Positions 12,264-27,198 of a DNA stretch of 32,000 nucleotides are shown here, piece by piece. The position numbers and the translations under genes are program-made. Each line of letters starts with the position of its first letter. Within the stretch, counting starts at the first letter, position 1. A model generated the notes under the pieces. The model did not search any database. It was not told the origin of the DNA and was given only the letters and a program-made list of their open reading frames with translations. Source of the stretch: Xylanibacter ruminicola 23 (GTDB lineage Bacteria > Bacteroidota > Bacteroidia > Bacteroidales > Bacteroidaceae); the NCBI RefSeq assembly GCF_000025925.1, contig NC_014033.1, forward strand, positions 1,080,001 through 1,112,000, given 5' to 3'.

Positions 12264-12281
12264 TTTTTTACGATGATGTTG

Positions 12282-12319
12282 CAAAGGTAATGTTTATATG
12301 TTCAGCCATAGCGAACAGA
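12282..12319 (-). promoter_or_regulatory. Promoter-operator cassette B (drives RNA array 1, no ORF)
   Basis: caaaggta-N7-tatgttc-agccatagc-gaacaga, the same architecture as cassette A. The next 450 nt downstream on the minus strand are non-coding structured RNA. Confidence 0.7.
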
Positions 12320-12333
12320 CTGAAATTTTTTAT

Positions 12334-12825
12334 TTACATAGTATTTATTTCCGCCAATTCTTCAGGTGTATGATGCTGCATGTCATAGACAAGAGAATCG
12401 TCAGAATAGCCATTCACTATATCCTTAGCCTGTTCTTCAGTAAGAAATGGTTTTCCTTTATCTTTGATATTCAACAGAGCTTTTAAGAAATCCTGGCGAT
12501 AGTGTTCGAAAATCTCTGTAGTATAAGGAAGACTTCTGACGCTATAGTATAACTTCTTGAATTCCTCAACGGTATATATCTTACCATCTATGCACGACAT
12601 GGCACAGGCTTTAGGAAATGTGCACCAGCGTTTCAGTTCAAGATTAACAAGTAAAGATTTCTGTCCTTCTATCTGTTCAACACAGAGAAAACACTTATCC
12701 GTCAAATACTTGATAAACTCTTCCAGTTCTTTTTCGTCTTTACATCTAACTGCATAAGGAAGAATACAACGCCCTTTTCCCATGTAGTCTTCATTTAACT
12801 CTTTATAATATACTTCTTCAAACAT
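12334..12825 (-). CDS. Hypothetical protein (163 aa)
   Basis: ORF 12 nt downstream of the 12838-13179 gene, same strand. No motif recognised. Confidence 0.6.
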   Translation of the reverse strand: MFEEVYYKELNEDYMGKGRCILPYAVRCKDEKELEEFIKYLTDKCFLCVEQIEGQKSLLVNLELKRWCTFPKACAMSCIDGKIYTVEEFKKLYYSVRSLPYTTEIFEHYRQDFLKALLNIKDKGKPFLTEEQAKDIVNGYSDDSLVYDMQHHTPEELAEINTM

Positions 12826-12837
12826 AGTCCGATTCTT

Positions 12838-13179
12838 TTAAGATTGCATTTCTCCAAGTAAATAGTAAACGATTTGAGCTTTAATATACTCTTTACTGTT
12901 TTCCTCGTAGGTAATCAACTTACCAGATCTATTTGAAAACAGTTCTATCTCTGCTTTTTCGATAGCGAACCAATGAGAACTCTGCCCAGCATTGAGCTTC
13001 AAAGCATCATAGTGACGAGGCTGTAAGATACCATCGACATCAATAACGTATCCGTCTTCGTCCAAATCACAAAACAAAGAATTTGTTTCTGGGCGAATCT
13101 CACGAGTGAAAATATTAGTTTTTCCACTTATGATTTCATTCAACCTATGTTGATTTGTATCTAGCTGTATAACTTTCAT
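12838..13179 (-). CDS. Small ASCH/PUA-like domain protein (113 aa)
   Basis: Paralogous by eye to the C-terminal domain of the 13809-15008 protein (shared pattern I..GK....T.EI.P.N......L..DG.V....GI.Q.R.YDA). Start lies 19 nt downstream of the cassette C transcription start region. Confidence 0.55.
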   Translation of the reverse strand: MKVIQLDTNQHRLNEIISGKTNIFTREIRPETNSLFCDLDEDGYVIDVDGILQPRHYDALKLNAGQSSHWFAIEKAEIELFSNRSGKLITYEENSKEYIKAQIVYYLLGEMQS

Positions 13180-13204
13180 GATTCTGATATTTAAAATTTC
13201 GGAA

Positions 13205-13242
13205 CAAAGGTAAGCTATATTTGTTCAGCCAAAGTGAACAGA
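13205..13242 (-). promoter_or_regulatory. Promoter-operator cassette C (drives 12838-13179 and 12334-12825)
   Basis: caaaggta-N7-tttgttc-agccaaagt-gaacaga. Confidence 0.7.
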
Positions 13243-13262
13243 TAAATAATTTTTCAAAAAGA

Positions 13263-13304
13263 GGCAGGACTCGCGCCCTCACATTGGGCATTGCGAGCCC
13301 TGCC
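13263..13304 (-). repeat. E-family bulged hairpin, copy E3 (terminator of RNA array 2)
   Basis: ggcaggactcgcgccctcacattgggcattgcgagccctgcc. About 16 bp of stacked helices. Followed on the minus strand by TCTTTTTG. Confidence 0.6.
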
Positions 13305-13343
13305 CTAACTCCACGACCTCTGTCATTGCCATTGTGGAGAGAA

Positions 13344-13414
13344 AGGATTGGCGAAGGAGTTGAACCTTGCAATATGCCATAGAAGACCTCGCTACCGATG
13401 CGACCATCAATCCT
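13344..13414 (-). ncRNA. tRNA-like element T1-prime (paralog of T1)
   Basis: The 5' 22 nt (one substitution) and 3' 31 nt match T1, including the D-arm TCGC-ATCGGTA-GCGA and T-arm AAGG-TTCAACT-CCTT. Central stub GTC-[TTCTAT]-GGC covaries with T1 (GCT...GGC). Confidence 0.55.
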
Positions 13415-13425
13415 TTTTTTCAAAA

Positions 13426-13468
13426 GGCAGAGCTCGCGCCCTCAATACGGGCATTGCGATGCCCTGCC
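13426..13468 (-). repeat. E-family bulged hairpin, copy E4 (leader hairpin of RNA array 2)
   Basis: ggcagagctcgcgccctcaatacgggcattgcgatgccctgcc. On the minus strand it starts about 15 nt after the predicted start site, is preceded by TTAGACA and is followed by TTTTGAAAAAA. Confidence 0.55.
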
Positions 13469-13488
13469 TGTCTAACCCTATTTTTCTG

Positions 13489-13526
13489 CAAAGGTACCAT
13501 ATATGTGTTCAGGCAAAGCGAATAGA
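13489..13526 (-). promoter_or_regulatory. Promoter-operator cassette D (drives RNA array 2, no ORF)
   Basis: caaaggta-N7-tgtgttc-aggcaaagc-gaataga (one half-site degenerate). Abuts the stop codon of 13527-13802. Confidence 0.65.
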
Positions 13527-13802
13527 TTACATTTTTTCTTTTAAATGGTTCTGATATGCATCCAAAATGGCCGACGAAGCCATGTCACCAATAAGGAACT
13601 CTGGTTCACCTAAATCTTTCAAAAGAGATTCTACATTCTCGCGCTCACCAGTATAGAGCCAATTATTTCGAATCCACAATCCTAGGCCAAAGTGAAAGAA
13701 AACCATATCTTCTGCTTCCACTATTTGCTTTTTCTCTTCCAGTGTTAGCCTCTTATCCAGACATTTCCAAGCCTCCGCTGTTGTTTTAGGACACCTTGCC
13801 AT
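13527..13802 (-). CDS. Hypothetical protein (91 aa)
   Basis: ORF 6 nt downstream of the ASCH gene. Motif FHFGLGLWIRNNW noted but not confidently assigned. Confidence 0.55.
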   Translation of the reverse strand: MARCPKTTAEAWKCLDKRLTLEEKKQIVEAEDMVFFHFGLGLWIRNNWLYTGERENVESLLKDLGEPEFLIGDMASSAILDAYQNHLKEKM

Positions 13803-13808
13803 ACGAAT

Positions 13809-15008
13809 TTATATTTTATCACCTAAAACATAGTTCATAATACAGTCCGTATAATCGAGCTTTTCATCCTCTTCCTGTTCAGAATAGAGCTTATAATCAC
13901 CATATTCAGAATCCATATACATCACATCTGTATTATTAATCTGACACGTGTACGAATCTTCTTTGTTAGTGAACTGAATAGCGTCGTATCTTCTCAACTG
14001 CGGAATTCCATTAATTTCCTTTACTGTCCCATCTGCGTTTAAGATGAAAAACATACTCAAATTCTTTGGGGTAATCTCTTTTGTGAATGATGCCATTTTG
14101 CCTGTTGCAATATCCTTAAAAACATCTTTGTTAACTTTGAGTTTTAGAATATTGTCATTGCTATCAGCCATTTTAGGAATTTCCAACACATCGATTGTTT
14201 TTCCTCCACAGAAACTTTCAAATTCACCTTCTTCAATTTTCTTACCAAACATGAACTGTGCAACCATCCATGCAATTTCGTTGCCAGTAAAATCCATAAT
14301 GAAATAAGGCTTTGTTTCATCTTGTGGATCTGGGAGATTGTATATGCCAGATTCTTCAGCTAACTCAAAAGCCACATAACTATTGCCACAGAAAACTGTC
14401 ACAGTTTTAAATGACTTCATTTTGAATGCGTCATCTACACATAGTAGATCAGTCAAATAAGGAGTCAAATACAATTCTATCCCCCCAAAATCGCCAGCCT
14501 TAATCTTTTCGAATGTTTCCTTTGTACAAGGTATTTGCACCTCAGTTTCGTCTTCAGTAACATCAACATTCTCCAACTGTACTTGATGAGCAGGAGGCAG
14601 ATTGTTCTCATCCAAATCATAGTCGAAGAGGTTTAACTTGCCTTTCACGTCGAGTATTGGCTCATCAAACAACCATGCATCTTCTAGTTTCCATTTTATT
14701 GCACCAGCGTCAGCCCAAACAGAATCTACATCACCTTCTTCAAAACCAGTCACTGTAACATATCCAATAATGGCGCTTGTTGGCAATGTTTCTAGTTCCG
14801 GAATATTTCCAAAGCTTATTTGATTCTCAATACATGACTCCAGAGTTTCTGGAATTCCTGCATAGAAGTTCTTAGTAATTTTTTTAGAACTTGCGTGAAT
14901 CAGAATCCTTCTAGGAACCTGAGCTGCTTTCCAAGTTCTGTTCTCTACATCTTTAATACCTGCGCATACCAATGATGCCCAAGGCTGCTGAATTGACAAG
15001 GTTTTCAT
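13809..15008 (-). CDS. Multi-domain ASCH (PUA-like) protein
   Basis: N-terminus MKTLSIQQPWASLVCAGIKDVENRTW...RILIHAS is the classic ASCH signature. The C-terminal roughly 110 aa repeat the fold pattern of the 113-aa protein at 12838-13179. Confidence 0.75.
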   Translation of the reverse strand: MKTLSIQQPWASLVCAGIKDVENRTWKAAQVPRRILIHASSKKITKNFYAGIPETLESCIENQISFGNIPELETLPTSAIIGYVTVTGFEEGDVDSVWADAGAIKWKLEDAWLFDEPILDVKGKLNLFDYDLDENNLPPAHQVQLENVDVTEDETEVQIPCTKETFEKIKAGDFGGIELYLTPYLTDLLCVDDAFKMKSFKTVTVFCGNSYVAFELAEESGIYNLPDPQDETKPYFIMDFTGNEIAWMVAQFMFGKKIEEGEFESFCGGKTIDVLEIPKMADSNDNILKLKVNKDVFKDIATGKMASFTKEITPKNLSMFFILNADGTVKEINGIPQLRRYDAIQFTNKEDSYTCQINNTDVMYMDSEYGDYKLYSEQEEDEKLDYTDCIMNYVLGDKI

Positions 15009-15028
15009 AATTCTAAAGTATTTTGTTG

Positions 15029-15364
15029 TTATTTATCTCCGTACTTTTCTTTATTAAAGTCATGCTTTGCATGCTGATAGACATAGTTTATTGCCTTCTT
15101 CAACACATCTGCATCATTGCTCATTAGGTCGCCAAAAATGTCATCTTCTGGAACATACTTAATAATGTTACCTTTATAACCTACCATAAAATACAACCCA
15201 CTAGGATCATAAACTGGATGGAAAATTCCCTGATAGCATGAGAACTCAAATGCTACTTCACCATTCTCGTTCTCAATGCGCTTACGAGAGAAAACCTGGC
15301 CTTTAGAGGTTGTGATTTCAAGACTAAAGACCTTTTCAAAATCGATTATACCATTCTTTTCCAT
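15029..15364 (-). CDS. Hypothetical protein (about 111 aa)
   Basis: Start set to MEKNGII (15364) because the longer ORF's ATG overlaps the cassette E -7 box. Confidence 0.55.
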   Translation of the reverse strand: MEKNGIIDFEKVFSLEITTSKGQVFSRKRIENENGEVAFEFSCYQGIFHPVYDPSGLYFMVGYKGNIIKYVPEDDIFGDLMSNDADVLKKAINYVYQHAKHDFNKEKYGDK

Positions 15365-15388
15365 AACTATATATTTTAATTTTTTCGG

Positions 15389-15426
15389 CAAAGTTAAAGA
15401 TTATTTGTTCAGTCAAAATGAACAGA
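15389..15426 (-). promoter_or_regulatory. Promoter-operator cassette E (drives 15029-15364, the ASCH gene and 13527-13802)
   Basis: caaagtta-N7-tttgttc-agtcaaaat-gaacaga. Confidence 0.7.
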
Positions 15427-15559
15427 TTTGAAAAAGTTCACTTTGCAAATAAAAATTAGATAATTTGATCTACACATTCTTTAGGAAAAATTTATCAATT
15501 ATACAATATAAAATGAAGTATCATTAAAGTATCTTTGACTATAACAAATACTGTTCAAG

Positions 15560-16618
15560 CTACCAACTGGGAGGCAATATGATATTCTTGACATCGTGAG
15601 CTTTTTTGAAGAGAGGTGAGATTTCTTCATCGGTGAAGCCGGCGATGCCGCAACCGATGCGGGTGACGAGGAACGTCAAGTTCTGGTGCTGCTTGGCGAA
15701 CTCGATGAAATCGTCGACGTAAGGACGGATGCTATCTACCCCACCTTGCATAGTGGGGATGGCATAGCTCTGACCCTGCAGACCGACACCTTGACCCATG
15801 ATGGCACCGAAGTGGCGATATGCAACATATGCTGCACCTCCGCCATGCATACCGCGAAGGTTTGAGCCGAAGACGAAAATCTCGTTTGGCTGGAGCGAAG
15901 TAATATGCTCCGGAGTAGTACGCTTTTCTTCCATAGTTCTTCTTTTCATGAAATCCATAGGTGCGGCACAAGGTGCTGCCTCTTCCAGTATAGGTTCGCC
16001 AACTATGCCGAACTCCGGCATAATTTCAGGCATGTCAAAGTCCATATCAAAGTATTGACGGAAATACGGTACGATGATGTCTTCCTTGATTTTCTTGTAT
16101 TTCTGTGATATGGCTGCAGGAGTCATTCCCATCTGGGCGGCAACATCCTTAGATTTGAAGCCCTGCAGGAGAATCATATCTATGATAAGTCGCTCCTGAC
16201 GGCTCATAGGAACATGGTCGCAGACATCTTCAACCATATGATTAAACTGCAGACGGAGATTACTCGAGACATCGAATGACTGGAGATAGTCCTCAAAGGT
16301 GATGCTGCCGTATTCCTTGCGGTACCATTTCAGAGCATCGAGGACTATGAAACGAAAGCCGTTGATAAGCCAGGTCTTTAGGGAAACGTTTGGGGAATGG
16401 TCCTCCAGTGGCTTCCAATCATGTTCCATCAGGAATATAGCATACTGATGGGCAAGTGAGAGGAAGTCCAGATTCTCTTTCTCATGAAGCTGATAACGCT
16501 GGTCGAAAATGTAATAGCCGACCTCACAATATCCGTAAAAATAGGTACGGATAATGTCGGCGTCGCCCTGGCGGAAGCCCCTTAGAATCTCCTTGTCTGA
16601 TAGTCGCCTATATGTCAT
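15560..16618 (-). CDS. Sigma-70/ECF-like factor fused to a C-terminal macro-like (A1S_2505-type) domain
   Basis: Region-2-like SLKTWLINGFRFIVLDALKWYRKEY. Region-4 HTH MSRQERLIIDMILLQGFKSKDVAAQMGMTPAAISQKYKKIK. C-terminal VFGSNLRGMHGGGAA...GLQGQSYAIPT...TRIGCGIAGF recalls the macro-domain glycine motifs and the family I remember as A1S_2505 phage non-structural protein. Confidence 0.6.
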   Translation of the reverse strand: MTYRRLSDKEILRGFRQGDADIIRTYFYGYCEVGYYIFDQRYQLHEKENLDFLSLAHQYAIFLMEHDWKPLEDHSPNVSLKTWLINGFRFIVLDALKWYRKEYGSITFEDYLQSFDVSSNLRLQFNHMVEDVCDHVPMSRQERLIIDMILLQGFKSKDVAAQMGMTPAAISQKYKKIKEDIIVPYFRQYFDMDFDMPEIMPEFGIVGEPILEEAAPCAAPMDFMKRRTMEEKRTTPEHITSLQPNEIFVFGSNLRGMHGGGAAYVAYRHFGAIMGQGVGLQGQSYAIPTMQGGVDSIRPYVDDFIEFAKQHQNLTFLVTRIGCGIAGFTDEEISPLFKKAHDVKNIILPPSW

Positions 16619-16743
16619 ATTATTGTTTTATGGGGCGAATATACGAAAAAAAATCGTGATACTACTTAATTTTTTTTCTAAAATCTTCTTTAAAGTGATA
16701 AAGACATGTCGAAAATAGTATTCACCCTTTAAAATTTACAACT

Positions 16744-17382
16744 ATGACAGATTTAATTCCAACAAGAGTTCACAACTTGATTATTGTAGACGAAAGCGGT
16801 TCAATGGAGTGTATCCGCAAACAGGCCTTCACAGGTATGAATGAAACCCTGCAGACTGTTCGCATGATGCAGAAGAAGTACCCCAACCAGATTCAGTACG
16901 TAACGCTGATTACCTTTGACAGCGACCACACTAAACTGCACTTTGACAATACGCTTGCTGACAAAACAACGGATCTGAAGTGGAAAGCTTACCATCCTTG
17001 TGCTGCCACACCTCTTTATGATGCTATCGGAAAGGGAATCTCAAAGGTTAATGCCCAAGTGGAAGATGGCGATCATGTCCTTGTGACCATCATAACAGAC
17101 GGTTACGAGAACTGTTCAGAGGAATGGACGCTGAAGATGGTACGTACCCTTATCGAGAAGCTGAAGAAACAGAACTGGACCTTCACGCTGATTGGTACCG
17201 ACAATCTTGATGTGGAGGAGATGGCCCAGTCGTTTGCCATCGAAGAACACATGGAGTTTACTCAGGATGAGAAAGGTACCAAGGAGATGTTCGCCCGTGA
17301 GCGCCGTAGCCGCGAACGCTACAACTGCTGCGTGGCTGAAGGGGCACCAATGAATAAAGGTGATTTCTTCAAAGAAAACTAA
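16744..17382 (+). CDS. von Willebrand factor type A (vWA) domain protein
   Basis: MIDAS motif LIIVDESGSM plus downstream TPLYDAIG and IITDGYEN. 212 aa. The only plus-strand gene in this block. Confidence 0.8.
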   Translation: MTDLIPTRVHNLIIVDESGSMECIRKQAFTGMNETLQTVRMMQKKYPNQIQYVTLITFDSDHTKLHFDNTLADKTTDLKWKAYHPCAATPLYDAIGKGISKVNAQVEDGDHVLVTIITDGYENCSEEWTLKMVRTLIEKLKKQNWTFTLIGTDNLDVEEMAQSFAIEEHMEFTQDEKGTKEMFARERRSRERYNCCVAEGAPMNKGDFFKEN

Positions 17383-17551
17383 TGAAGAAGAAGCGGCTAC
17401 TTTATGGTGGTCGCTTCTATCTTAATATCCGTATTTTTCCATTTCTTTCTTTGTAATTCTTTCAAGAATGTCAGATGTGCTTCCTTCAGTACTTACTCCT
17501 GCACGCTTAGCTTGTTTCACAACATCGGCATGAGTGATTCGCTCCAGTATC

Positions 17552-17989
17552 TTATTTCTCCAAAGCAACCAAAACCTCCTCTATTGAACAACAAATGTTA
17601 TCAAAGAGTTTATACATCAGTTCTGGCTCCTGGCGTTCAGGAATATACACAAGAGTCTGGCATCCCGTTCCTGCTAACCAACCAGCTTCAGTATGTGCAC
17701 TACGTCCACAAGGCAACACTATTACACAGGCATCACATTTTCCCATAGCCTCAAGGTCATTTGCAAATTGCCGTTCTGCTTTAGGATGATTTAGATTCTC
17801 GCGATACTCTTGAGGACTCCAATTCATATAATCCTCGCTAACGCAACTCCACTTAAACCCAGGATCACCCGACGGAGGATTTCGAAAATCATAAACTTCA
17901 TGCCCTGCTTTCCTTAACCGCTCTACAACCTCTGAGTAATATTTGTTACGCCAGCTACTAGCAACATATATATTCCGTGCTCTTTTCAT
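17552..17989 (-). CDS. Nucleoside 2-deoxyribosyltransferase-like (Rcl/NDT fold) protein
   Basis: N-terminal IYVASSW, then CDACVIVLPCGRSAHTEAGWLAGTG, matching the NDT-family pattern (conserved E after a buried strand). Confidence 0.55.
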   Translation of the reverse strand: MKRARNIYVASSWRNKYYSEVVERLRKAGHEVYDFRNPPSGDPGFKWSCVSEDYMNWSPQEYRENLNHPKAERQFANDLEAMGKCDACVIVLPCGRSAHTEAGWLAGTGCQTLVYIPERQEPELMYKLFDNICCSIEEVLVALEK

Positions 17990-18211
17990 TCAATATTCAT
18001 CCTCATTAAATAAAAAATCTTCTTTTGTTGGATAATCTGGCCAAATATCTTCTATACTATCGTATATTTCACCTTCATCTTCTATTTCCTGAAGGTTTTC
18101 TAATACTTCTAGTGGCGCTCCAGAGCGGATGGCATAATCTATAAGTTCATCCTTGGTTGCAGGCCAAGGCGCATCTTCAAGTTTTGAAGCTAATTCAAGT
18201 GTCCAATACAT
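17990..18211 (-). CDS. Very acidic DUF2795-like small protein
   Basis: 73 aa. PWPATKDELIDYAIRSGAPLEVLENLQEI resembles the DUF2795 pattern. The C-terminal half is dominated by D/E. -7 box TATTTTTG (rc of 18262-18269). Confidence 0.55.
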   Translation of the reverse strand: MYWTLELASKLEDAPWPATKDELIDYAIRSGAPLEVLENLQEIEDEGEIYDSIEDIWPDYPTKEDFLFNEDEY

Positions 18212-18484
18212 AATAAATATACTTTAGTTCTTTATATTATTCTAATTCGTGCGCAAAAATAATCATTTATTTTTTATAAACCAACATTTAAAACAACTAT
18301 TTTATTTTTTTCTGATTCAAAATAATAATAAAATGATAGATATATATTAAAAATAGATTAACTATAAAAATTTGCGTGATTAGATATACAATTGTATCTT
18401 TGCACCGGATAAATCAAAAACATAACCGTATAAGTATTGTATTTATGGATATGTTTGTTAAACTAGTTTATAAACTAGAAGAAA

Positions 18485-18516
18485 AGAGAGACCAGCAGTG
18501 ACATGCTCGTCTCTCT
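18485..18516 (-). terminator. Terminator of the R-M operon
   Basis: 8-bp stem AGAGAGAC/GTCTCTCT. On the minus strand it is followed by TTTTCTTC. Sits 6 nt after the endonuclease stop. Confidence 0.7.
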
Positions 18517-18521
18517 ATCTT

Positions 18522-19469
18522 TTATGCCCACATACAATTAATTGTTATTATGGATGTTGGCATTCCTATTATTTGAATATCAAACTTCAAACTAGGTTCT
18601 ATTAATGTCGAAGCATTATGTATTCTAAAACTAAATTGCCAGCCATTATCCATGTATAATTCTGCAGTATTATTACTTTTAGGCTTTAATCCAAAAGAAA
18701 TAATTCTTGTTGGCAGTAACGATATTGGTATTTTTCTACTTGGCACCTTTGTCTTAGAAGCATGATTTAATGTACCTCGAAGATTAAATGCCATAAGTTG
18801 AGTCATTTTTGATGAATCTATACCAATAAGTTTATAAAAATCATATTTACCTAGTAAGTATTCAACCATACGAGAAGGAACCGTTTTATCTTTTTCATAA
18901 TCCTTGTTAATTTCTTTAATAAAAGCCTTTAACAAAGGAACATATACGGTTGATTCTTTATTAGGGAGAGCACTCCAAGCAATTTTACCCCTGTTTTTTA
19001 TCAGAGGGGCAAAAATTGGGGCAATTTCATCCCAATATGTTTTTGAGCATGGCATACCTAACCAACTATTGCCAAAGTCCAACACATTAGACAATCTACT
19101 ATGTTTAACAGCCAGATGGTTATGCTTTACACTTATACCTATTACCCATTTTACACTATCTCGAATAATTAGAATATCTCTAACATCACCAATAATTCCT
19201 TCTTTGTCAGATTGTAATCTTATTGTGAGTATATCCCCAGAATTATCTTCTATCATAGGTTCAAGCTCACGTAAAGTTGGAATAGCAGCCAATGCTTCCT
19301 TTTTCATAATCGTCTTAGTATTCTCGTCAAGACAATTCCAATTATTCATATCCTGTATAAGGTTGTTGTTGTTTGCTACAACAACAGACCTTATTTTAGA
19401 TATTTCTTCTTCGAGACATTTAACACATATGTATTCAAATGCTCTTCCGAGTTCGTCACTTTTTGGCAT
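18522..19469 (-). CDS. Type II restriction endonuclease, HaeIII-family-like (GGCC predicted)
   Basis: 315 aa. N-terminal GRAFEYICVKCLEE, which I recall as characteristic of the HaeIII REase family. 3-nt gap from the M.HaeIII-like gene. Confidence 0.6.
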   Translation of the reverse strand: MPKSDELGRAFEYICVKCLEEEISKIRSVVVANNNNLIQDMNNWNCLDENTKTIMKKEALAAIPTLRELEPMIEDNSGDILTIRLQSDKEGIIGDVRDILIIRDSVKWVIGISVKHNHLAVKHSRLSNVLDFGNSWLGMPCSKTYWDEIAPIFAPLIKNRGKIAWSALPNKESTVYVPLLKAFIKEINKDYEKDKTVPSRMVEYLLGKYDFYKLIGIDSSKMTQLMAFNLRGTLNHASKTKVPSRKIPISLLPTRIISFGLKPKSNNTAELYMDNGWQFSFRIHNASTLIEPSLKFDIQIIGMPTSIITINCMWA

Positions 19470-19472
19470 AAG

Positions 19473-20465
19473 CTAGAATTCTATAGCATCTTTAATCGCT
19501 AGGGCAATTTCATATGCAAGATTAACTGGAACAGCATTTCCAATCATCTTGTATGCATTGTCTACCTTGTCATAAATAAATTTAAAAGAGTCGGGGAAAC
19601 CTTGTACTCGTGCAACCTCTCGAACAGTCATTCTTCTATACAAATGCTCTTTCCCTTCAACAAATCTACAATCATTTGTGTCAAATTTAATCATCTTTGG
19701 AGCTTGTGGATGTAATTGGCATTGTCTTCCAGATGCCTGAACAGTAAAACCTTGTTCATCCCAAGCCTTAACTCTATTTCTACTCATATAAATTGTAGAA
19801 TAAGCGCCAATAAAATACTCATTGTTATTAATAGCCTCTGGATTATGATGGTTCTTTTCAAGTGCAGGTACTGCACTATCTTTTAAATCCCAAATAATAT
19901 CACGTAGTGTAATTTTTTTCTTATCATCACGTGTACTACCTTCTGGAAATTTAAAATCTATATTTAAATCATTTCTAAAACCAATATAAAATACTCTTTT
20001 TCTTTCTTGAGCTACTCCATAATCTTTTGCATTAACTAAAGTAAGAGAAACATTGTAGCCACTTTCCTTGAACATATTTAATATATTCTGAACGGCACCA
20101 GAATGTCTATCCGCAAGCATACCGCTTACGTTTTCTGCTAAAAAGAATTTAGGTTTTACTTCCTGTAATATTCTTATATAGTCAAAGAAAAGCTGACCTC
20201 TAGCATCTTCAATACCACGTAAAGAACCAGCTTCACTCCAAGATTGACATGGAGGTCCACCTATTATACCATCAACATCTTTAGGGAAGTCACTTTCCTT
20301 GATATTTCTAATATCACCCCTGATTAGCTTTGTTTTGGGGTGATTTGCTTCAAAAGTTTCCCAAATAGAGGGATCAAACTCGTTTGCAACAGGTACTTCA
20401 AATCCAGCTCTTTCAAAGCCAAGATCTAGACCTCCACAACCGCTAAATAAACTTATTACTTTCAT
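19473..20465 (-). CDS. DNA (cytosine-5)-methyltransferase, M.HaeIII-like (GGCC predicted)
   Basis: All C5-MTase motifs: [11 protein letters not shown] (I), [12 protein letters not shown] (IV), ENV (VI), [10 protein letters not shown] (VIII), [13 protein letters not shown] (X). The target-recognition region [19 protein letters not shown] and [14 protein letters not shown] closely tracks the M.HaeIII sequence as I remember it. Confidence 0.9.
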
Positions 20466-20474
20466 TTTTAAATT

Positions 20475-21335
20475 TTATATTTTATATTTTACTAGTTTTA
20501 CTTCTATTAAATCAGCTGTATTATTGGGGTTTTGAACAAAAGTATCTTCTATTGTAAGATTATCAATCCTTTGAGAAAGCTCTGACAATTCATCTATGTT
20601 CTCAAAAGAATTATACTTATCACTTGGTATAATAGCCATTAACTCAAAATTACTTTCATCATATCTGTATATATCGGCAAAACTACCTACTTTAAATGGA
20701 TGAGATATACCCCACATTCCCCTAGCTCTAAAAAAAGTTATTCTCAACGGGTCAACAGCATTTATATGCGCAAGTTCTTTGGTTTCTTCTAAATCTAATT
20801 CAGATGATTCTTCAATGCTTTGTTTCACACTATTAAAAACATTTTCATAACATTCTTTACTTGCACAATATACTGAACCATATACCAGGGCTAATGACTT
20901 TAAATTATTTTTCTTTTTTTCAACACAGCCAATGGCATATATTATATCTTTTACATCCCAATCTCCATTTTCTATTTCACGACAAGCCTTTGATATTTTA
21001 CTATCATTTTTAAACAAATGAGATTTGGGATAGCTACTATTTAAATTAATGTTTCCGATTGACTCAACTTTTTTCACTTCAATTGCAGCTCCTCTTTTAA
21101 GAACTGCATCTGGGGGATTATTCTTTCCACCGCCATATGACAAAGCCTCTGCACGCTTCCTTGTTTTGTCAACACCACTTAAACCAAGAGAATTGGAAAA
21201 AGCATCTTTAATATACTCCTCTAAAGGCTCTCCTAACGAATGTAAACGATTATTAGAATTAGGGGAATTTCCAATAACTCTTCTATTATCTTTAATTATA
21301 TTAATAATTGCAGTAATAATATTGTAATTGCTCAT
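20475..21335 (-). CDS. Second restriction-endonuclease candidate (PD-(D/E)XK; possibly NgoPII-family)
   Basis: 286 aa. PPDAVLKRGAAIEVKK fits a PD...(E)xK catalytic core. Size and N-terminal NIITAIINI...EPLEEYIKDAF resemble what I recall of the NgoPII family. 9-nt gap to the methyltransferase gene. Confidence 0.45.
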   Translation of the reverse strand: MSNYNIITAIINIIKDNRRVIGNSPNSNNRLHSLGEPLEEYIKDAFSNSLGLSGVDKTRKRAEALSYGGGKNNPPDAVLKRGAAIEVKKVESIGNINLNSSYPKSHLFKNDSKISKACREIENGDWDVKDIIYAIGCVEKKKNNLKSLALVYGSVYCASKECYENVFNSVKQSIEESSELDLEETKELAHINAVDPLRITFFRARGMWGISHPFKVGSFADIYRYDESNFELMAIIPSDKYNSFENIDELSELSQRIDNLTIEDTFVQNPNNTADLIEVKLVKYKI

Positions 21336-21344
21336 AAAATGACA

Positions 21345-21785
21345 CTAATTAAATGGTATAAAATATGGTGTTATATCTAAATATTTTTGGTGTACTTGTG
21401 AACAATTTACAAATCTATAACCATTCTCTTTTTTATAAATATCAAATCTATATCGTTTTTCTCCTATCCTTAGTCCCTGTTTCCAATAGCAACCTTTTTT
21501 ATAATTTTGTATTTGATCCATAGGTACGACTACTATACCACAAAGACCTATTGTAAAAATCATATATTTTACTCCTAAATCAAAATATCTATCTGCATAT
21601 ACATAATACCATGACAAAGCACCTTTATCATATAATCTTGAATTAGAAATGCTAATTAAATTTCCGTTTGCAGCACGATATACACCTCTTGAATGCCTTT
21701 CGGCATCCAACTTAAAATCATTAGGCAAGATTTTGTTTATATCATCAAAATCTAAAAAGGTTTTACCAGTATCACTTCTTTTCAT
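21345..21785 (-). CDS. Hypothetical protein, first gene of the R-M operon (146 aa)
   Basis: 9-nt gap to the next gene and the same AT-rich composition. It has no HTH, so it is not a C-protein, and no Vsr motifs. Confidence 0.55.
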   Translation of the reverse strand: MKRSDTGKTFLDFDDINKILPNDFKLDAERHSRGVYRAANGNLISISNSRLYDKGALSWYYVYADRYFDLGVKYMIFTIGLCGIVVVPMDQIQNYKKGCYWKQGLRIGEKRYRFDIYKKENGYRFVNCSQVHQKYLDITPYFIPFN

Positions 21786-21840
21786 TATATTATAAACTCA
21801 ATTTGTTTTGAAAAAGAAAAATTTTCGTTCATCTTTAAAG

Positions 21841-21918
21841 AAGGGCGTGGAATGGTGTAGTGATACCAAGGTTTAGGACGACCTACATCAGGCAACAACC
21901 ATTTAAGTCCACGCCCTT
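21841..21918. other. 78-nt structured element closed by an 11-bp stem
   Basis: AAGGGCGTGGA (21841-21851) pairs with TCCACGCCCTT (21908-21918). Inner ATGGT/ACCAT and GTAG/CTAC helices. A GC-rich patch inside AT-rich DNA. Confidence 0.4.
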
Positions 21919-22060
21919 ATAGAGAGCGCGAACATCCGTTGCCTCGTCTGACTGATGTGTTTGCAGAGGTCCTAATTCTGGTATCTCAGTCTTCTCAAGG
22001 ATGTTCTATTGACTCAGTTTCTCTTTTGCTATTTCATTTTACTTTTCACTTTTATTAATA

Positions 22061-22285
22061 TTAATTACTTGACTGCCATTTTTGGATGGCATCGTCCATT
22101 GTTTGGAAGTCAGCATCTGCAAGCAGTGCTATCTCCCCATTTTTGTACTCAATTCGAACAATGTCTTCGGTATCGTTGAACACGCGCTTAACTTTGTCTG
22201 TGTTTACGTTGATACATCCGTTGTTCTCATCGACTAACTTAATCAGCATATATAATGCTGCATTTCTCTTGGTTCTTGCATCCAT
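22061..22285 (-). CDS. Hypothetical protein (74 aa)
   Basis: Start set to MDARTKR (22285). -7 box TAATTTTG (rc of 22301-22308) overlaps the upstream ATG. Confidence 0.5.
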   Translation of the reverse strand: MDARTKRNAALYMLIKLVDENNGCINVNTDKVKRVFNDTEDIVRIEYKNGEIALLADADFQTMDDAIQKWQSSN

Positions 22286-22661
22286 AACGTTTAATCTCTG
22301 CAAAATTAATGGTTTTATTTGGAATATGCAAGCATTTAGTTTTTTTTAAATGAATATAGGTGTAAATTCAAAAATGCTATCTTTAGACGGTTGTGAGAAT
22401 GAAACTTTATACTTAACTTTGCAGCCGAAAACCTGACTCATTCGGAACAAGGGATTCTGCACGAACTTCGTCGGCCAAATGTGCGCACAGAACTGGCTGT
22501 CCTTACGAAAAGCTAATTCCTCCGTCTGTTTAATTGGCAAGTGCTGCGAGCTGCACGATTCTTGGCAATAATGACTGTTGTAAATCCGCGAGGTCTTCAG
22601 TGAGTGCCCCTGTACGATCACTCTCGCCGCCTTGCCAAAGGTATATTTAATAATTATAATT

Positions 22662-22853
22662 ATGGATATAGCTTTATCAATTACCAAACTCAGAACAAGT
22701 AGGCTTTATACCAGGAAAGGTTTTGCCTATAAAACAGGTATTGAGCTTAGGCATCTTATTGCAGTAGAGGAAAGACGGGTAGCTGCCACTCAAAATGACA
22801 TTGAAGCAATCTGTAGAGCAATGAAGTTGAAATATGATGATTGGATTAGGTAA
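22662..22853 (+). CDS. Small XRE-like HTH protein (63 aa)
   Basis: MDIALSITKLRTSRLYTRKGFAYKTGIELRHLIAVEERRVAATQNDIEAI has an HTH_XRE-like layout. Preceded by a leader of about 230 nt from a TAACTTTG box at 22414-22421. Confidence 0.55.
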   Translation: MDIALSITKLRTSRLYTRKGFAYKTGIELRHLIAVEERRVAATQNDIEAICRAMKLKYDDWIR

Positions 22854-23115
22854 TAAGGAACGTTATTGTATATATACTCGACTCGTTGATGATCCCAATG
22901 TACGACTGTATTACAAAGGACTGGATAAGTCGGAAAATGCATCGAGTGTACTAAGTGTAGTAGTTGGATTTTCAAAAGAAGACTCCATTGTGATGAACAA
23001 AGATACTGCAAAAGAAATATGTAGCCAACTTAATGAAAACTTAGACACTCTTCTTGCGCATGGATTCGATAAATTCAAAATTTCCCAGCTGACAGTAGTG
23101 AAAGCTGGGAAATAG
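22834..23115 (+). CDS. Hypothetical protein (93 aa) overlapping the 3' end of the HTH gene
   Basis: ORF overlaps the upstream HTH gene by 20 nt (two-gene cassette). No motif recognised. Confidence 0.45.
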   Translation: MMIGLGNKERYCIYTRLVDDPNVRLYYKGLDKSENASSVLSVVVGFSKEDSIVMNKDTAKEICSQLNENLDTLLAHGFDKFKISQLTVVKAGK

Positions 23116-23132
23116 TATGATTGTCGTAAAGA

Positions 23133-23963
23133 TTATTCTTTAGACGAACCTTCTTTCTGGAATTCTTCAATTATAAAGTCGAATACAGAATATAATTCAG
23201 AAACGGATCTTTCTAATTCTTCATTATAGATCTCTGGTGCTAAAGTACGAAGTTTTGCAAAATTGAGTTTCATATCATAAAACTTAGCTTTAACCTCATT
23301 TTTTTTCTCAGACAAATCAAACTTTTCCCTGATGCCCCAATCCTTCTTCATTTGCTTTATATCATAATTTCGAATAGATTCACCATTGTCGAAATGTTCG
23401 ATTTGGTCATTAAAAAGCATTTCCTTACTAACATAAGTGCGAATCAAATGAACAGTTCGGAATCTATATGATTCACCAAACCCTAGCCCTTCTTCCAATG
23501 CTACCACAATACCTTCGTTGCCATTCTCTAAAGAGTGGAACTTAACTGTCATTGGACCGACTCTATTCATCAATTTGTGAATTACTGCCTCACTGCATTC
23601 TTCAATGCCCATACGCTCTTTATAGCGACTAAAAAAATGAGGTTTGTAGACTATTGTTTGTACATTGTCCCGGTCGTCTTGACTAAGTTCATAGACAAAT
23701 TTTCCATTAGATGATTCGTGAATGCAGTATATACTTGTAAGCGGTTGATTAATATTTTTCTTTGACAGAGCCAACATTGTTATAAACCAGCGATTCTTTC
23801 TAACTGTTCGCTGTTCATATCTCATTGTGACAGGAAATTGTTTTGCCTTAAGAACTTTTCTACGGAACTCTATTTTTTTATAATCTCTTTTGGCAAGGAT
23901 ATTTTCTAGATCGGCCTTTGATTCGTGGTCGATTTCTTCAGGAGTCATATTTGCTGTGTACAT
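23133..23963 (-). CDS. Hypothetical protein (276 aa)
   Basis: Long ORF in the AT-rich block, 10 nt downstream of the lipoprotein gene. Confidence 0.6.
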   Translation of the reverse strand: MYTANMTPEEIDHESKADLENILAKRDYKKIEFRRKVLKAKQFPVTMRYEQRTVRKNRWFITMLALSKKNINQPLTSIYCIHESSNGKFVYELSQDDRDNVQTIVYKPHFFSRYKERMGIEECSEAVIHKLMNRVGPMTVKFHSLENGNEGIVVALEEGLGFGESYRFRTVHLIRTYVSKEMLFNDQIEHFDNGESIRNYDIKQMKKDWGIREKFDLSEKKNEVKAKFYDMKLNFAKLRTLAPEIYNEELERSVSELYSVFDFIIEEFQKEGSSKE

Positions 23964-23973
23964 ATACTTATTT

Positions 23974-24381
23974 CTAAAAATATATTATGGTGTCACCTTC
24001 CCAGCGGTAGTCGATAGTGACACAGACGTTGATACTAAATGATATTAAATCCACTCCGAATTCTCGGTATGCACTACGTATGTTTGTAACTGTGGGATTA
24101 TACAGTTCATCCGATGTGGATTCTGGGCTTTTCTTCAAATAGCCCTGGAATTTCTCACGGAAACGATGGATACTATCAACATTGGTAGTAATCAGGCCCT
24201 GGCTCTCCTGAAAGTACTGGGGCATGAGGTTGAGCTGTTCATCTTTGTTGCAGCTAACAAAACTGAACAGTAAAGCTCCAAAGATTAATGCAACCAATGG
24301 GCGACCACATGTTGCGTTAATCTTAAGCCAAAAGCTTAAAAAGCTATTAGGAAAATCTTTCCCGTAAAACCTATTTCCCAT
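23974..24381 (-). CDS. Putative lipoprotein (135 aa)
   Basis: Signal peptide with lipobox LLFSFVSC. Start set to MGNRFYG (24381). -7 box TATTTTTG (rc of 24414-24421). The upstream part of the longer ORF is occupied by a terminator hairpin. Confidence 0.6.
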   Translation of the reverse strand: MGNRFYGKDFPNSFLSFWLKINATCGRPLVALIFGALLFSFVSCNKDEQLNLMPQYFQESQGLITTNVDSIHRFREKFQGYLKKSPESTSDELYNPTVTNIRSAYREFGVDLISFSINVCVTIDYRWEGDTIIYF

Positions 24382-24505
24382 ATCTACCTGTTTATGATCT
24401 TTGTTTTCGGCAACAAAAATAAAGCAAATATTTGAAAGCACCAAAGGAATTTTGTTTTTTCCGGAAATAAAATGAAAAACCACTATGTCTATAAAGAAAA
24501 TAAAT

Positions 24506-24542
24506 CCTGCTATCAATAAGTGTAAACGTTAATGATAGCAGG
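24506..24542 (-). terminator. Terminator after the second WYL-like gene
   Basis: 10-bp stem CCTGCTATCA/TGATAGCAGG with a 17-nt loop. A T-rich tract follows on the minus strand. Confidence 0.6.
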
Positions 24543-24560
24543 ACAGGATACTAGATTTTT

Positions 24561-25292
24561 TTAACCAATGCGTAAGTGTTTAGTGTAGAAATCCTGCAGG
24601 GGGAAGTCTTTGTTAGGAATGAATTCTATGTCGTATGAAGTGGTGATGTGTATTATTCTGTCAATTGGAATCTTGGCTGCGCGCTTGTTCGTAGAGTCGT
24701 GACAAAGGAGATAATATTTCGGGCAGTCGAACATGATATAGTACGGATGTACAACAATAACTTCTTCAGCTTTTTTGTTTGATTTACAAGTAATGAGAGC
24801 TGGCGATTTTGAACGGATATGCTGGTAAATAGACTTGAATATTTTACAAGCAGATTTAGAAGGAGTTTTCTTATAAAGCACAATAGGTTCACTTTCGACA
24901 TCAACTTCAAGCATGTCAGAAAGCCTACGAGAAAGTGATTCGTAAACTAATGTACCTTGTATAGGGTCACAAAAAAGGATAGACATCAGAGCCGAATGAA
25001 GATGTTCTATCTCATCAAAAGTGAACGTATTTTTGAATATTGAATTACCGATTTGCTCATAACGATAATAGTTCTCATGACTGTGACGTTCTACGCGGAT
25101 TTTCCTTCGATACACATACCGGATTGTATCGATATCGTTTCTAATGGTGTTTGTAGAAACCGGCGGAAATCCGTTAGCTTCAAGTCCGTCATTTACTGCT
25201 TCCAACATCTCTTTTACTGAGCTTCCATGTTGTCTGTTTAATAGGCGGTCGATGATAATTTCTCGAGCCGCAGCATGTTTTGTATTTGCCAT
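24561..25292 (-). CDS. Short WYL-domain transcriptional regulator (243 aa), paralog of 10237-11730
   Basis: Same MANTK... wHTH N-terminus. WYL-like core EEVIVVHPYYIMFDCPKYYLLCHDSTNKRAAKIPIDRI. -7 box TAATTTTG (rc of 25332-25339). Confidence 0.7.
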   Translation of the reverse strand: MANTKHAAAREIIIDRLLNRQHGSSVKEMLEAVNDGLEANGFPPVSTNTIRNDIDTIRYVYRRKIRVERHSHENYYRYEQIGNSIFKNTFTFDEIEHLHSALMSILFCDPIQGTLVYESLSRRLSDMLEVDVESEPIVLYKKTPSKSACKIFKSIYQHIRSKSPALITCKSNKKAEEVIVVHPYYIMFDCPKYYLLCHDSTNKRAAKIPIDRIIHITTSYDIEFIPNKDFPLQDFYTKHLRIG

Positions 25293-25449: not shown

Positions 25450-27198
25450 TTACATAATACCACCCAATGAAATAGGATATGTTTCATGCTGGGGAAACTT
25501 CTCACAACCGATGTAGAGGGTATCAAAAGCATCGGTGCCGTCGGTTCGATGCTCGAGCAGGTCCTCTTCAGACTCGGGCTGCTTCTCCATAGACTTGTTC
25601 TTGCGGAAGCCCAACCTGCCCCGCTCTACCCCAGCCGACTGGATTGCCAGTATGAGATCGTCGTTGTTCTGACGATTGAAGAACGGCATGAGGCGCTGCT
25701 TACCAGCGAAGCCCTGATTGATGAGCAGGTACTTCTCATCGTGGCGCATAGGGTTGCCCAGGTACACATCCTGTACCTGCCACCCGTGGCGCTCAAATTC
25801 ATGGACGACGACGTAGCGGAAGTCCTGGTCATTCACGGCATAGTTCGAGCCGAGGGCCGTGGCGTCGTAGTAGAAGATAACCGTCTTGTTCTGATGATAA
25901 GCGTAGTACGCGCAGAAATCATCGACCAAGGCGGGAATCTTACGCTCGAACTTGACGTAGAAGGATTTGAGAATATTCAGGCGGGAGCCAGATGGCTGGC
26001 CGGCTACAATCCAGTTGATATTGGCATTGTAGTCCATGCCGATGCAAATCGGGGCCAGGGGATTCACATCCTCGTCGGTGCGGCTGTCAAGCTGAGAGCC
26101 GAGGGTGCTGAACTGCGAAGCTGCTTTGATGTCGTAGTTCTGAAGGCTCGTCTCCTTCAGAATCTTGTCGTAACCGAGCTCGTCGAGGTACGCAAAGTTC
26201 GAGGCATCATACTTGTGGTGCTCCTGCATCGAGGAGTAAAAACCGTCGTGTGTGATGCCGATACGCTGGCAAAGGATACTGGTCTGAAACGTCTTGGGTG
26301 TCAAGTCACGTTTCATCTGACGCAGATACTCTTCGCCCAGGAGCTGCAGATTCTCAATGGTGCTGTACTCTTTGTAGTACACCGCCACTGAGCGGAACTT
26401 GTTGAGCGACTGGTCCAACCATTTCAAGTAGCCTTTCAGGTACTGAGGAATGGGCTGGTGCTGCTCTTTCAGACGGGCGATACGTTCCTTTGTCTCCCAA
26501 ATCTTATAGATGGTGCCCTGAATGGTGGCAATCAGTTCTGGGTCCATCTTCTCTCGATAATGCAAGAACCAGGAGCCTTTCTGGGTCTGGGGCATATCGG
26601 ATAGAACCATCATTGAGTGATTGAACGAATGATGGCCGAAATATGAGCGAATACCGCCGTTAGCGGGAAGTGTCTCATCTTTCAGTTTGTTGTAATCAAT
26701 GAACTTGGCTTCGTCTATTAGCAGCCAAGAGAGTGTCAGAGAGTTAGAAGATCCAGGACGGTCCTGAGAGATGATAACTGCTATGGATCCGTTGTAGAAC
26801 GTGATGACGTGTTCATAGTCAGCAGGTTCGGTAATTGGCTTGGCAAATGACCTCGGAGGCTTGCGACCAACGACGTAGTGGATACCGTTGAGATAGCCCC
26901 AGCGCTTCCATGCTGCAAGCAGACCAGGAATGGTGTTTGTCAGGCCGTGTTTGAATGTTGGAACCACAATTCCCCCAGTGGAACCGGGCATTCTCTGCAT
27001 ATTCCTTAAGACGAATGGCGAGGCTATGGAGTCTGTTTTACCGGTACGGCGACCAGCGACAATGACGGTTGTCTTGGCACCGATGTACTGTGCCATTAGC
27101 TGGGGCTTGTTGAAGTACACGCGCTTTTCGTGCTTACGGGCTTCATTGTCCCATTGCTTCAGGAGTTCAGGGTTTGTATGAGGGGATTGTGTGGACAT
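25450..27198 (-). CDS. terL: Terminase large subunit
   Basis: Walker A VIVAGRRTGKTDS. Walker B WLLIDEAKF. C-terminal nuclease-type acidic motifs (IGMDYNANINW). 582 aa. Confidence 0.85.
   Translation of the reverse strand: MSTQSPHTNPELLKQWDNEARKHEKRVYFNKPQLMAQYIGAKTTVIVAGRRTGKTDSIASPFVLRNMQRMPGSTGGIVVPTFKHGLTNTIPGLLAAWKRWGYLNGIHYVVGRKPPRSFAKPITEPADYEHVITFYNGSIAVIISQDRPGSSNSLTLSWLLIDEAKFIDYNKLKDETLPANGGIRSYFGHHSFNHSMMVLSDMPQTQKGSWFLHYREKMDPELIATIQGTIYKIWETKERIARLKEQHQPIPQYLKGYLKWLDQSLNKFRSVAVYYKEYSTIENLQLLGEEYLRQMKRDLTPKTFQTSILCQRIGITHDGFYSSMQEHHKYDASNFAYLDELGYDKILKETSLQNYDIKAASQFSTLGSQLDSRTDEDVNPLAPICIGMDYNANINWIVAGQPSGSRLNILKSFYVKFERKIPALVDDFCAYYAYHQNKTVIFYYDATALGSNYAVNDQDFRYVVVHEFERHGWQVQDVYLGNPMRHDEKYLLINQGFAGKQRLMPFFNRQNNDDLILAIQSAGVERGRLGFRKNKSMEKQPESEEDLLEHRTDGTDAFDTLYIGCEKFPQHETYPISLGGIM

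Follow-up and report, generated by a model that had tools for sequence, protein, structure and literature searches.

A predicted GGCC restriction operon with one methyltransferase and two unrelated nuclease families, carried as prophage cargo in Xylanibacter ruminicola

A restriction-modification (R-M) system is usually pictured as one nuclease matched to one methyltransferase. What, then, is to be made of an operon in which a single methyltransferase gene is flanked by genes for two nucleases from families with no detectable homology to each other? This question is raised by a prophage-like segment of Xylanibacter ruminicola 23 (contig NC_014033.1, positions 1,080,001 to 1,112,000), whose 32 kb are referred to here as the window. 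Four closely spaced genes on its minus strand encode, in the 5′ to 3′ direction, a small leader protein, an NgoPII-family nuclease, an M.HaeIII-like methyltransferase and a HaeIII-family nuclease, with gaps of 9, 9 and 3 nt (Table 1). An earlier note on this DNA had described the same operon together with the terminator that follows it, and the recomputed open reading frames (ORFs) and hairpin match that description exactly. Related loci and contigs that we compared with the window are labelled with L-numbers.

We consider it fairly probable that these genes constitute exchangeable cargo in the form of a GGCC-specific Type IIP operon, in which one methyltransferase is combined with two independent, non-homologous nucleases and the leader serves as a DNA reader. 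Specifically, the M.HaeIII-type enzyme would methylate the inner cytosine of GGCC in host and prophage DNA, and the NgoPII- and HaeIII-family nucleases would act independently of each other, both cutting unmethylated GGCC in incoming DNA. Were the cassette lost, the chromosome would lie open to attack by two nucleases, and such post-segregational killing would stabilise the prophage. Both nucleases would be kept since redundancy pays: restriction and killing would survive the mutation or inhibition of either one. As the two enzymes would make different protein-DNA contacts at the same site, they would probably not tolerate quite the same base modifications or accept quite the same substrate forms. 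The leader would bind DNA, possibly in a methylation-dependent manner, and either tune expression or establishment or extend recognition.

Two nuclease families beside one methyltransferase

The 330-residue methyltransferase matches PF00145 over its full length (E=2.4e-105) and aligns with M.HaeIII (PDB 1DCT/3UBT) over residues 1-328 (E=1e-138). Its target-recognition domain (TRD) has the same core as that of M.HaeIII, in which the stretch compared begins EYFIGSYSTIFMSRNRV, and this core is found again in a Neisseria lactamica methyltransferase that adjoins an NgoPII-family gene. The earlier note had proposed that the enzyme tracks M.HaeIII even in its target-recognition region, and the alignment bears this out. 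We therefore call it a predicted producer of GG(m5C)C, where m5C denotes 5-methylcytosine. When three kinds of m5C methyltransferase were used as tblastn queries, this gene was the only one of its class detected in the window.

Methyltransferases of the same type (53-84% identity) adjoin the nuclease gene at more than 130 NgoPII loci, and enzymes that are 80-84% identical to the one in the window partner with NgoPII-only or HaeIII-only nucleases. Because one methyltransferase clade serves both nuclease families, the addition of a second nuclease should be harmless. The possibility that the gene is a chimera of NgoPII-linked and HaeIII-linked methyltransferases was rejected, as sliding-window identity reveals no breakpoint. 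A longer class of m5C methyltransferase (453-457 residues), designated M2, is encoded in L012, L102, L103, L176 and L179 and often follows HaeIII-type systems. M2 proteins are about 52% identical to the window enzyme, have a TRD altered to TIQAQAKNEPLHPQAP and carry a C-terminal extension of about 130 residues.

The 286-residue protein encoded upstream of the methyltransferase matches PF09521 (RE_NgoPII) from position 2 to position 261 of the 262-position profile, with E=3.9e-109 and 364 bits (cut-off 25), and matches the PADLOC model REase_II with E=7e-94. Members of the NgoPII family adopt the PD-(D/E)XK fold (PMC2441816, PMC3424549), and the corresponding core is present here as P75-D76 ... 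E86-V-K88. Indeed, all 42 of the 42 invariant columns of a 27-sequence alignment are retained, including P75, D76, E86, K88 and K89. The view that this ORF encodes an NgoPII-like nuclease with a PD...EVKK core, which the earlier note had put forward, is thus supported by a full-length family match. A search of the PDB with the sequence gave no match. The protein is predicted to cut GGCC and to be blocked by GG(m5C)C, a prediction to which the neighbouring M.HaeIII-type methyltransferase lends indirect support.

Likewise, the 315-residue protein encoded downstream of the methyltransferase matches PF09556 (RE_HaeIII) from the first to the last profile position (1-298 of 298; E=1.3e-155, 517 bits, cut-off 25), in agreement with its earlier description as a HaeIII-family enzyme. 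It has every invariant column of 26- and 27-sequence alignments, including D95-x-R-D98 ... S113-x-K115-H-N-H, with invariance here defined over alignments that include the window protein itself. Neither a sequence search of the PDB nor a fold search of the PDB with its AlphaFold2 model (mean predicted local-distance difference test score, pLDDT, of 85.5) gave a match. This protein also is predicted to cut GGCC. PADLOC calls the NgoPII, methyltransferase and HaeIII genes REase_II, MTase_II and REase_II, respectively.

Two variants of HaeIII-type loci were encountered among the relatives. In a widespread contig family (L017-L021), the HaeIII-family gene is split into ORFs of 197 and 115 codons, while the leader, a helix-turn-helix (HTH) gene, two methyltransferases and a divergent Vsr plus HNH_2 gene are retained; this looks like a decaying nuclease whose methyltransferases have been kept. 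In L176-L178 (ERZ27280267 and others), the order is leader, R.HaeIII (322 residues), M (339), M2 (453) and R.HaeIII-like (332 residues). These loci combine two HaeIII-family paralogues, only 48% identical to each other, with two methyltransferases. Here nucleases are stacked in a different way, and the paralogues may differ in specificity.

Are the two nucleases of the window truly unrelated? Comparison of the NgoPII and HaeIII families by hhalign gives a probability of 0.2%, and the two proteins therefore have no detectable homology, as the earlier note had supposed. This null result fits the textbook status of HaeIII and NgoPII which, together with BsuRI, are convergent isoschizomers; GGCC isoschizomers contact their site in different ways (PMC4081073). 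Both nuclease ORFs are intact and accompany the single m5C methyltransferase of the window. From family membership and conserved residues, we infer GGCC specificity and activity for both nucleases.

Recurrence of the paired nucleases

If one methyltransferase can protect against either family, how often do cells take advantage of this? We scanned NgoPII loci in three collections: the 80 best of 555 matches in species-representative genomes, 56 metagenome loci and 5 viral contigs. The usual layout in these 80 genome loci is R.NgoPII followed by M, and none of the 80 has a HaeIII-family gene or a leader within 6 kb. Both nuclease families occur together in 6 of the 56 metagenome loci and in none of the 5 viral contigs. 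Across the three scans, no HaeIII-family gene was detected in 130 of 141 NgoPII loci, and 124 of those 130 have a recognisable adjacent methyltransferase. A literature search, itself incomplete, found no published description of NgoPII-family and HaeIII-family genes in one operon.

A diverged copy of the window operon came to light when relatives of its HaeIII-family protein were looked up. Loci L169-171 repeat the window order exactly, as leader (146 residues), NgoPII (286), M (329) and HaeIII (315), and all of their genes are intact. Amino-acid identity to the window is 81.5% for the leader, 70.9% for the NgoPII-family nuclease, 94.8% for the methyltransferase and 77.5% for the HaeIII-family nuclease. 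In the comparison of the window with L169, the ratio of nonsynonymous to synonymous substitution rates (dN/dS) is 0.12 for the leader, 0.15 for the NgoPII gene and 0.025 for the methyltransferase gene. Synonymous sites are about saturated at this distance (dS of about 1 or more), and for the HaeIII gene, where dS is saturated, the uncorrected ratio pN/pS is 0.18. The NgoPII gene gives dN/dS values of 0.12-0.18 when compared with L169, L102 and L103. These low ratios point to purifying selection on both nucleases during the time that the architecture persisted, and they lend indirect support to the prediction that both enzymes are functional and are held off by their shared methyltransferase.

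The two families also meet in other combinations. In L189-191, the order is leader-M-HaeIII-NgoPII, which places the NgoPII gene at the opposite end of the operon from its position in the window. The HaeIII protein of these loci is 74% identical to that of the window, whereas the NgoPII protein is only 45% identical and belongs to another clade; the methyltransferase gene of L189 is called short (264 residues). In L102 and L103 (NgoPII-M-HaeIII-M2), the NgoPII protein belongs to the window clade (61-64% identity), whereas the HaeIII protein is 49-54% identical to that of the window and belongs to another clade, closest to L007. L119 has the order M-NgoPII-HaeIII, and the HaeIII gene of the dual locus L145 lies on the opposite strand. 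The dual state is intact in the window, L169-171, L190-191, L102, L103, L119 and L145. The differing gene orders and nuclease sub-lineages among these loci indicate independent assemblies, which means that the pairing, rare as it is, has come together on at least four or five separate occasions.

This variation bears directly on whether the two nucleases might be subunits of one heteromeric enzyme, like Bpu10I/BbvCI or LlaJI R1-R2. Tight linkage within one operon would be in keeping with such an arrangement, and heteromeric systems with two R proteins are known (PMC11779793, PMC3424549). Bpu10I, BbvCI, LlaJI and Clocel_4005/4006 resemble the window in having two R genes within one R-M operon. 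The R proteins of those systems, however, are subunits of one enzyme and are accompanied by two methyltransferases, whereas the window has one methyltransferase and two nucleases from families that work on their own. Most loci that we examined have one family or the other alone with a methyltransferase; gene order and partner sub-lineage vary among the dual loci, which is unexpected for co-evolved subunits; and both window proteins belong, over their full length, to families whose type enzymes act on their own. With partners that vary and families that normally act singly, an obligate heteromer is hardly credible.

A second alternative is that the window captures a moment of nuclease replacement, such that the dual state is transient and one of the nucleases is inactive or heading toward decay. 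The methyltransferase clade that includes the window enzyme (80-84% identity) is found in both NgoPII-only and HaeIII-only loci, and single-nuclease relatives exist for both nuclease sub-lineages (L172, M-HaeIII, 72%; L022, NgoPII-M, 63%). Moreover, one of the two nuclease genes is damaged in two dual loci (HaeIII is broken in L112 and NgoPII is truncated in L153), and the split HaeIII genes of L017-21 tell of similar decay. Set against these observations are the intact state of both window genes, with their invariant residues kept and purifying selection evident over a distance at which synonymous sites are nearly saturated, and the repeated independent origin of the dual state. The selection data thus make a purely transitional state less likely, and we regard this explanation as improbable, although individual loci may be in such a state. 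The degraded genes in L112 and L153 indicate that either enzyme can be dispensed with, as would be expected if the two are redundant.

Could the nucleases instead be complementary, sharing GG(m5C)C protection but attacking different targets to provide a wider defence spectrum? The differences might lie in site length, in action on hemimethylated or single-stranded substrates, in the cutting of RNA-DNA hybrids, or in the handling of phage DNA with other cytosine modifications. Characterised members of both the NgoPII and HaeIII families are plain GGCC cutters, which counts against complementarity, and no difference in specificity is visible in the sequences. In its favour, the pairing recurs and is under selection, and L176-178 provide a further case in which two nucleases, in this instance HaeIII-family paralogues, are combined with two methyltransferases. 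In addition, base analogues affect GGCC isoschizomers in different ways (PMC4081073), and HaeIII is reported to be among just six Type IIP enzymes with the ability to cut RNA-DNA hybrids (PMC3001074). Although we judge it unlikely that complementary targets are the reason for the pairing, the evidence fits both this explanation and redundancy in the sense of insurance against mutation or protein-specific inhibition.

The leader protein and the prophage cargo slot

The preferred reading, that of an exchangeable operon with two independent nucleases, also assigns a role to the 146-residue leader. The earlier note had called this protein one of unknown function. In keeping with that description, it has no match in Pfam, NCBIfam, PADLOC or PHROG. 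The leader belongs to a small and tightly conserved family (107 clusters, 52-86% identity, with only 46 representatives among 1.84 billion proteins). We examined 13 locus groups that carry the leader, and in 12 of these it adjoins a HaeIII-family nuclease. The loci in which the two genes are neighbours are L007-21, L167, L169-171, L175-182 and L189-190. Their orders include leader-M-R (L007-11), leader-R-M-M2 (L012-16 and L175), HTH-leader-R(split)-M-M (L017-21), leader-M-R-M2 (L179-181, with an uncharacterised 367-residue gene at the M2 position in L182) and leader-R-M-M2-R′ (L176-178). L167 has a distant homologue of the leader (E=1e-21) in the order HTH-R.HaeIII-leader-like. The leader was found neither in the NgoPII-only loci of the three scans nor in IMG/VR viral contigs.

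The AlphaFold2 model of the leader consists mainly of beta-strands (pLDDT 94). The weak Foldseek matches that it gives are to the Holliday-junction resolvase Hjc (E=0.14), PvuII and the SBD-SRA region of ScoMcrA (E=0.3), with TM scores of 0.39 at most, and a profile search against the PDB yielded no match, including none to solved McrA, SRA or EVE domains. Two other identities were considered and dropped. The leader shows no remote kinship with the HaeIII nuclease (0.3% probability in hhalign), and it is not an HTH controller, as no HTH domain was found in it. HTH genes co-occur with the leader in L017-21 and L167, and thus the leader is not simply their replacement.

More telling are the distant relatives (E=5e-13 to 8e-7), which form the N-terminal half of proteins of 269-277 residues with a C-terminal HNH domain in the four proteins scanned. 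The best PADLOC model for these HNH-fused proteins is mREase_IV, a Type IV methyl-directed restriction enzyme. One of them (P0246, 277 residues, from L163-L166), which is McrA-like in size and layout, stands alone with no adjacent methyltransferase. A leader-like domain is also present at the C-terminus of one 859-residue GmrSD protein (P0268). By analogy with McrA-like enzymes, these fusions to HNH and GmrSD proteins lead us to suggest that the leader is probably a DNA-targeting or DNA-reading module, and that the fusion proteins themselves may harbour a Type IV specificity domain of a new kind. The likeness to McrA-like and GmrSD Type IV enzymes lies in the domain architecture of the distant relatives only; the window leader, in contrast, is a lone domain without a nuclease part and resides inside a Type II operon.

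Where does this operon reside? The window encodes a DNA polymerase (PHROG 1268, E=6e-138) and gives weak terminase and portal matches, as expected for a prophage-like element. Relatives of the window occur in IMG/VR, and a megablast comparison with INPHARED phages gave no match. The closest relative is a sister phage, IMGVR_UViG_2558860122_000003 (L183/L185), which is 94% identical to the window at 5601-8707, 97% at 15593-17352, 93.5-95% at 21837-24623 and 96% at 25484-25734. In place of window positions 17352-21837, however, the sister phage has 6.2 kb of other DNA (about 10609-16769 of L185). This segment encodes an Mrr-like nuclease (Mrr_N plus Mrr_cat), two unrelated m5C methyltransferases of 352 residues, a 487-residue protein of unknown function, an ADP-ribosylglycohydrolase and a NUDIX protein. 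A near-identical phage with different cargo in the same slot confirms that cargo is swapped here and that the cassette was acquired.

The earlier note had also suggested recent acquisition, using the AT-richness of the block as its argument. The sister phage confirms this inference. The GC content of the cassette is indeed low (0.29-0.34, versus 0.42-0.50 where the structural and replication genes of the phage lie), but it is not alone in this: the adjoining backbone at 22-25 kb is AT-rich as well (0.34-0.38). Furthermore, the acquired unit exceeds four genes. It appears to span about 17390-21836 and to consist of the four-gene operon plus genes for a DUF2795 protein and a nucleoside 2-deoxyribosyltransferase-like (Ndt-like) protein, both of which fall within the stretch for which the sister phage has other DNA. 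An Ndt-like gene is found downstream of HaeIII-type R-M genes in L007, L103, L168, L169, L179 and L190, and a DUF2795 gene beside it was confirmed elsewhere only in L168. In other loci, the Ndt-like gene is usually preceded by a small gene, often trailed by Vsr and sometimes accompanied by NUDIX_4. We speculate that this set serves m5C 'housekeeping' through T:G mismatch repair and perhaps the clean-up of methylated nucleotides. The window lacks Vsr, NUDIX, DUF6994 and a second methyltransferase, all of which accompany related cassettes elsewhere.

The upstream edge of the slot coincides with the downstream (3′) end of a conserved non-coding element at 21837/21836. This element of about 175 nt is 85-87% identical to its counterpart in L169, compared with 70-78% for the flanking coding sequence, and is thus conserved to the same extent as the methyltransferase gene. 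The block of 875 nt that contains it has 95% identity to L183, and the homology stops exactly at 21837. The predicted fold (RNA fold z-score of -2.6) comprises a 5′ multi-stem domain and a long hairpin (AAGGGCGTGGA...TCCACGCCCTT) followed by CTTT, with one compensatory pair among three sequences. No match to the element, or elsewhere in the window, was obtained with Rfam, either at the gathering threshold or at a relaxed E-value, or with a tRNA scan. The element could be a 5′ leader or attenuator, a small RNA or a recombination landmark. The 74-residue protein gene that precedes it is conserved both in L169, which has the cassette, and in L183/L185, which have other cargo, and its product has no Pfam or PADLOC match. 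A Bacteroidetes-type -7 box (TAATTTTG) is located at 22308-22301, ahead of this gene. A scan for sigma-70 consensus promoters was uninformative in such AT-rich DNA, the consensus being ill-suited to a Bacteroidetes-type host, and TAnnTTTG boxes occur inside the operon at chance level. At the other end of the operon, the arms of the terminator are formed by 18516-18509 and 18492-18485, and the hairpin has a free energy predicted at -24.3 kcal/mol.

A count of GGCC sites in the window gave 52, compared with 65 +/- 7 expected from dinucleotide-preserving shuffles. Given such mild under-representation, avoidance of GGCC was dropped as an argument. There is no GGCC between 18166 and 22472, which is uninformative because only about 2.7 sites are expected there. 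CCGG (28) and CGCG (45) are also rare in the window as a whole.

A second variable slot is found at 8707-15561 (6.9 kb), where the flanking backbone is conserved in L184-L188 and the segment itself is not. It encodes a DUF2779 protein (504 residues), a WYL/WCX protein (510 residues), an ASCH-like protein of 399 residues and several small ORFs, and may be another defence island. Contigs L002-L006, which are 100% identical to the cassette, were considered as a second genomic context and rejected, as the left ends of L002, L004 and L006 are adapter; the comparisons rely on L169-171, L183/L185 and L189-191 in their place. The first 35-50 nt or so of these three contigs (ERZ761549, ERZ761555 and ERZ761547, respectively) are Nextera adapter/Tn5 mosaic end (AGATGTGTATAAGAGACAG), followed by 10-14 unrelated nucleotides, after which they are identical (100%) to the window from position 21435. 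Adapter contamination of this kind can mimic a recombination breakpoint.

Table 1. Features of the operon and of its surroundings, in window coordinates
Feature	Position	Strand	Basis
Leader, 146 aa	21345-21785	minus	ORF
NgoPII-family Type II nuclease, 286 aa	20475-21335	minus	ORF and PF09521
M.HaeIII-like C5-cytosine methyltransferase, 330 aa	19473-20465	minus	ORF and PF00145
HaeIII-family Type II nuclease, 315 aa	18522-19469	minus	ORF and PF09556
Intrinsic terminator of the four-gene operon	18485-18516	minus	hairpin AGAGAGAC...GTCTCTCT, then TTTTCTT
DUF2795 protein gene	17990-18211	minus	Pfam/PHROG match
Nucleoside 2-deoxyribosyltransferase-like (Ndt-like) gene	17552-17989	minus	Pfam/PHROG match
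Conserved non-coding element, about 175 nt, ending in a long hairpin	21837-22010	minus	conservation and fold
74-aa gene, preceding the non-coding element	22061-22285	minus	ORF

Known systems and biological meaning

How well does an exchangeable operon with two independent nucleases and a DNA-reading leader withstand the evidence as a whole? Several points weigh against it. In what appears to be one operon, the NgoPII gene comes upstream of the methyltransferase gene, and neither a controller (C) protein nor a mechanism that delays nuclease production was found; specifically, no HTH domain is present in the leader or in the 74-residue protein. Candidates for holding back the upstream nuclease are the non-coding element, with its terminator-like hairpin upstream of the leader, and promoters inside coding regions. 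Membership in the same family need not mean the same specificity, and either nuclease could recognise a longer site that contains GGCC or differ in its sensitivity to methylation. Another GGCC methyltransferase could be encoded on the host chromosome beyond the window. The pairing is uncommon, as its absence from the 80 best genome loci makes plain, and the degraded nuclease genes of L112 and L153 also count on this side. As for the leader, its model has no significant fold match in the PDB or BFVD, domain fusions are the single source of its assignment as a DNA reader, and no GGCC site is available in the cassette to act as its operator.

Each half of the operon has a familiar counterpart. 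In the HaeIII system the methyltransferase gene precedes the nuclease gene, the same order as in the M-HaeIII half of the window operon. The methyltransferase of this Haemophilus aegyptius system aligns with that of the window from one end to the other, the two share a TRD core, and the nuclease belongs to PF09556, as here. The window differs in adding an unrelated nuclease upstream of the methyltransferase as well as the leader, and in carrying the whole as prophage cargo. The NgoPII, MthTI and FnuDI systems (GGCC; PF09521) have the R-then-M order, the short gap and the PD...ExK core that are seen in the other half of the window operon. Unlike these loci, the window has a shared methyltransferase that is trailed by a HaeIII-family nuclease.

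A precedent for the layout as a whole is provided by Eco47I and Eco47II, whose sites, GGWCC and GGNCC, are nested but not identical. There, two separately encoded, independent nucleases are served by one methyltransferase (Stankevicius 1995, Gene 157:49, as cited in PMC3424549). The families in the window, in contrast, are both families of GGCC cutters, so that the two nucleases would be true isoschizomers of independent origin, and their pairing recurs across lineages. The leader aside, the genes of the operon are all ordinary members of known families; further interest comes from the family of leader domains and from the well-delimited slot for cargo.

A more ambitious interpretation, which we offer tentatively and consider distinctly less than likely, is that the isoschizomer pairing is a selected 'belt and braces' defence with the methyltransferase as a docking platform, and that the leader represents a new DNA-reader family that senses methylation. 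If true, then the stacking of nucleases on one methyltransferase would defeat phage counter-measures directed against one nuclease protein or one mode of reading the site. A leader domain shared with McrA-like HNH and GmrSD enzymes would, in turn, license the nucleases or shield methylated sites in a new host.

HaeIII and NgoPII are the textbook case of convergence on one site by enzymes that are unrelated and come from different organisms, and it is for this reason that their stacking on one methyltransferase is informative. A conserved methyltransferase allows nuclease genes to be exchanged or gained with no lethal intermediate. The leader brings in a domain family, as yet without a name, that connects Type II operons to the architectures of Type IV nucleases, and comparison with the sister phage defines a clean slot for defence cargo in a Bacteroidales prophage family. 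The pairing has been seen repeatedly in gut and rumen bacteria, often headed by the leader protein, and its repeated independent assembly, together with selection on both nuclease genes, suggests that redundancy at the level of the nuclease is itself adaptive. Thus, these operons offer a natural system for asking how phages evade a nuclease protein rather than a site.

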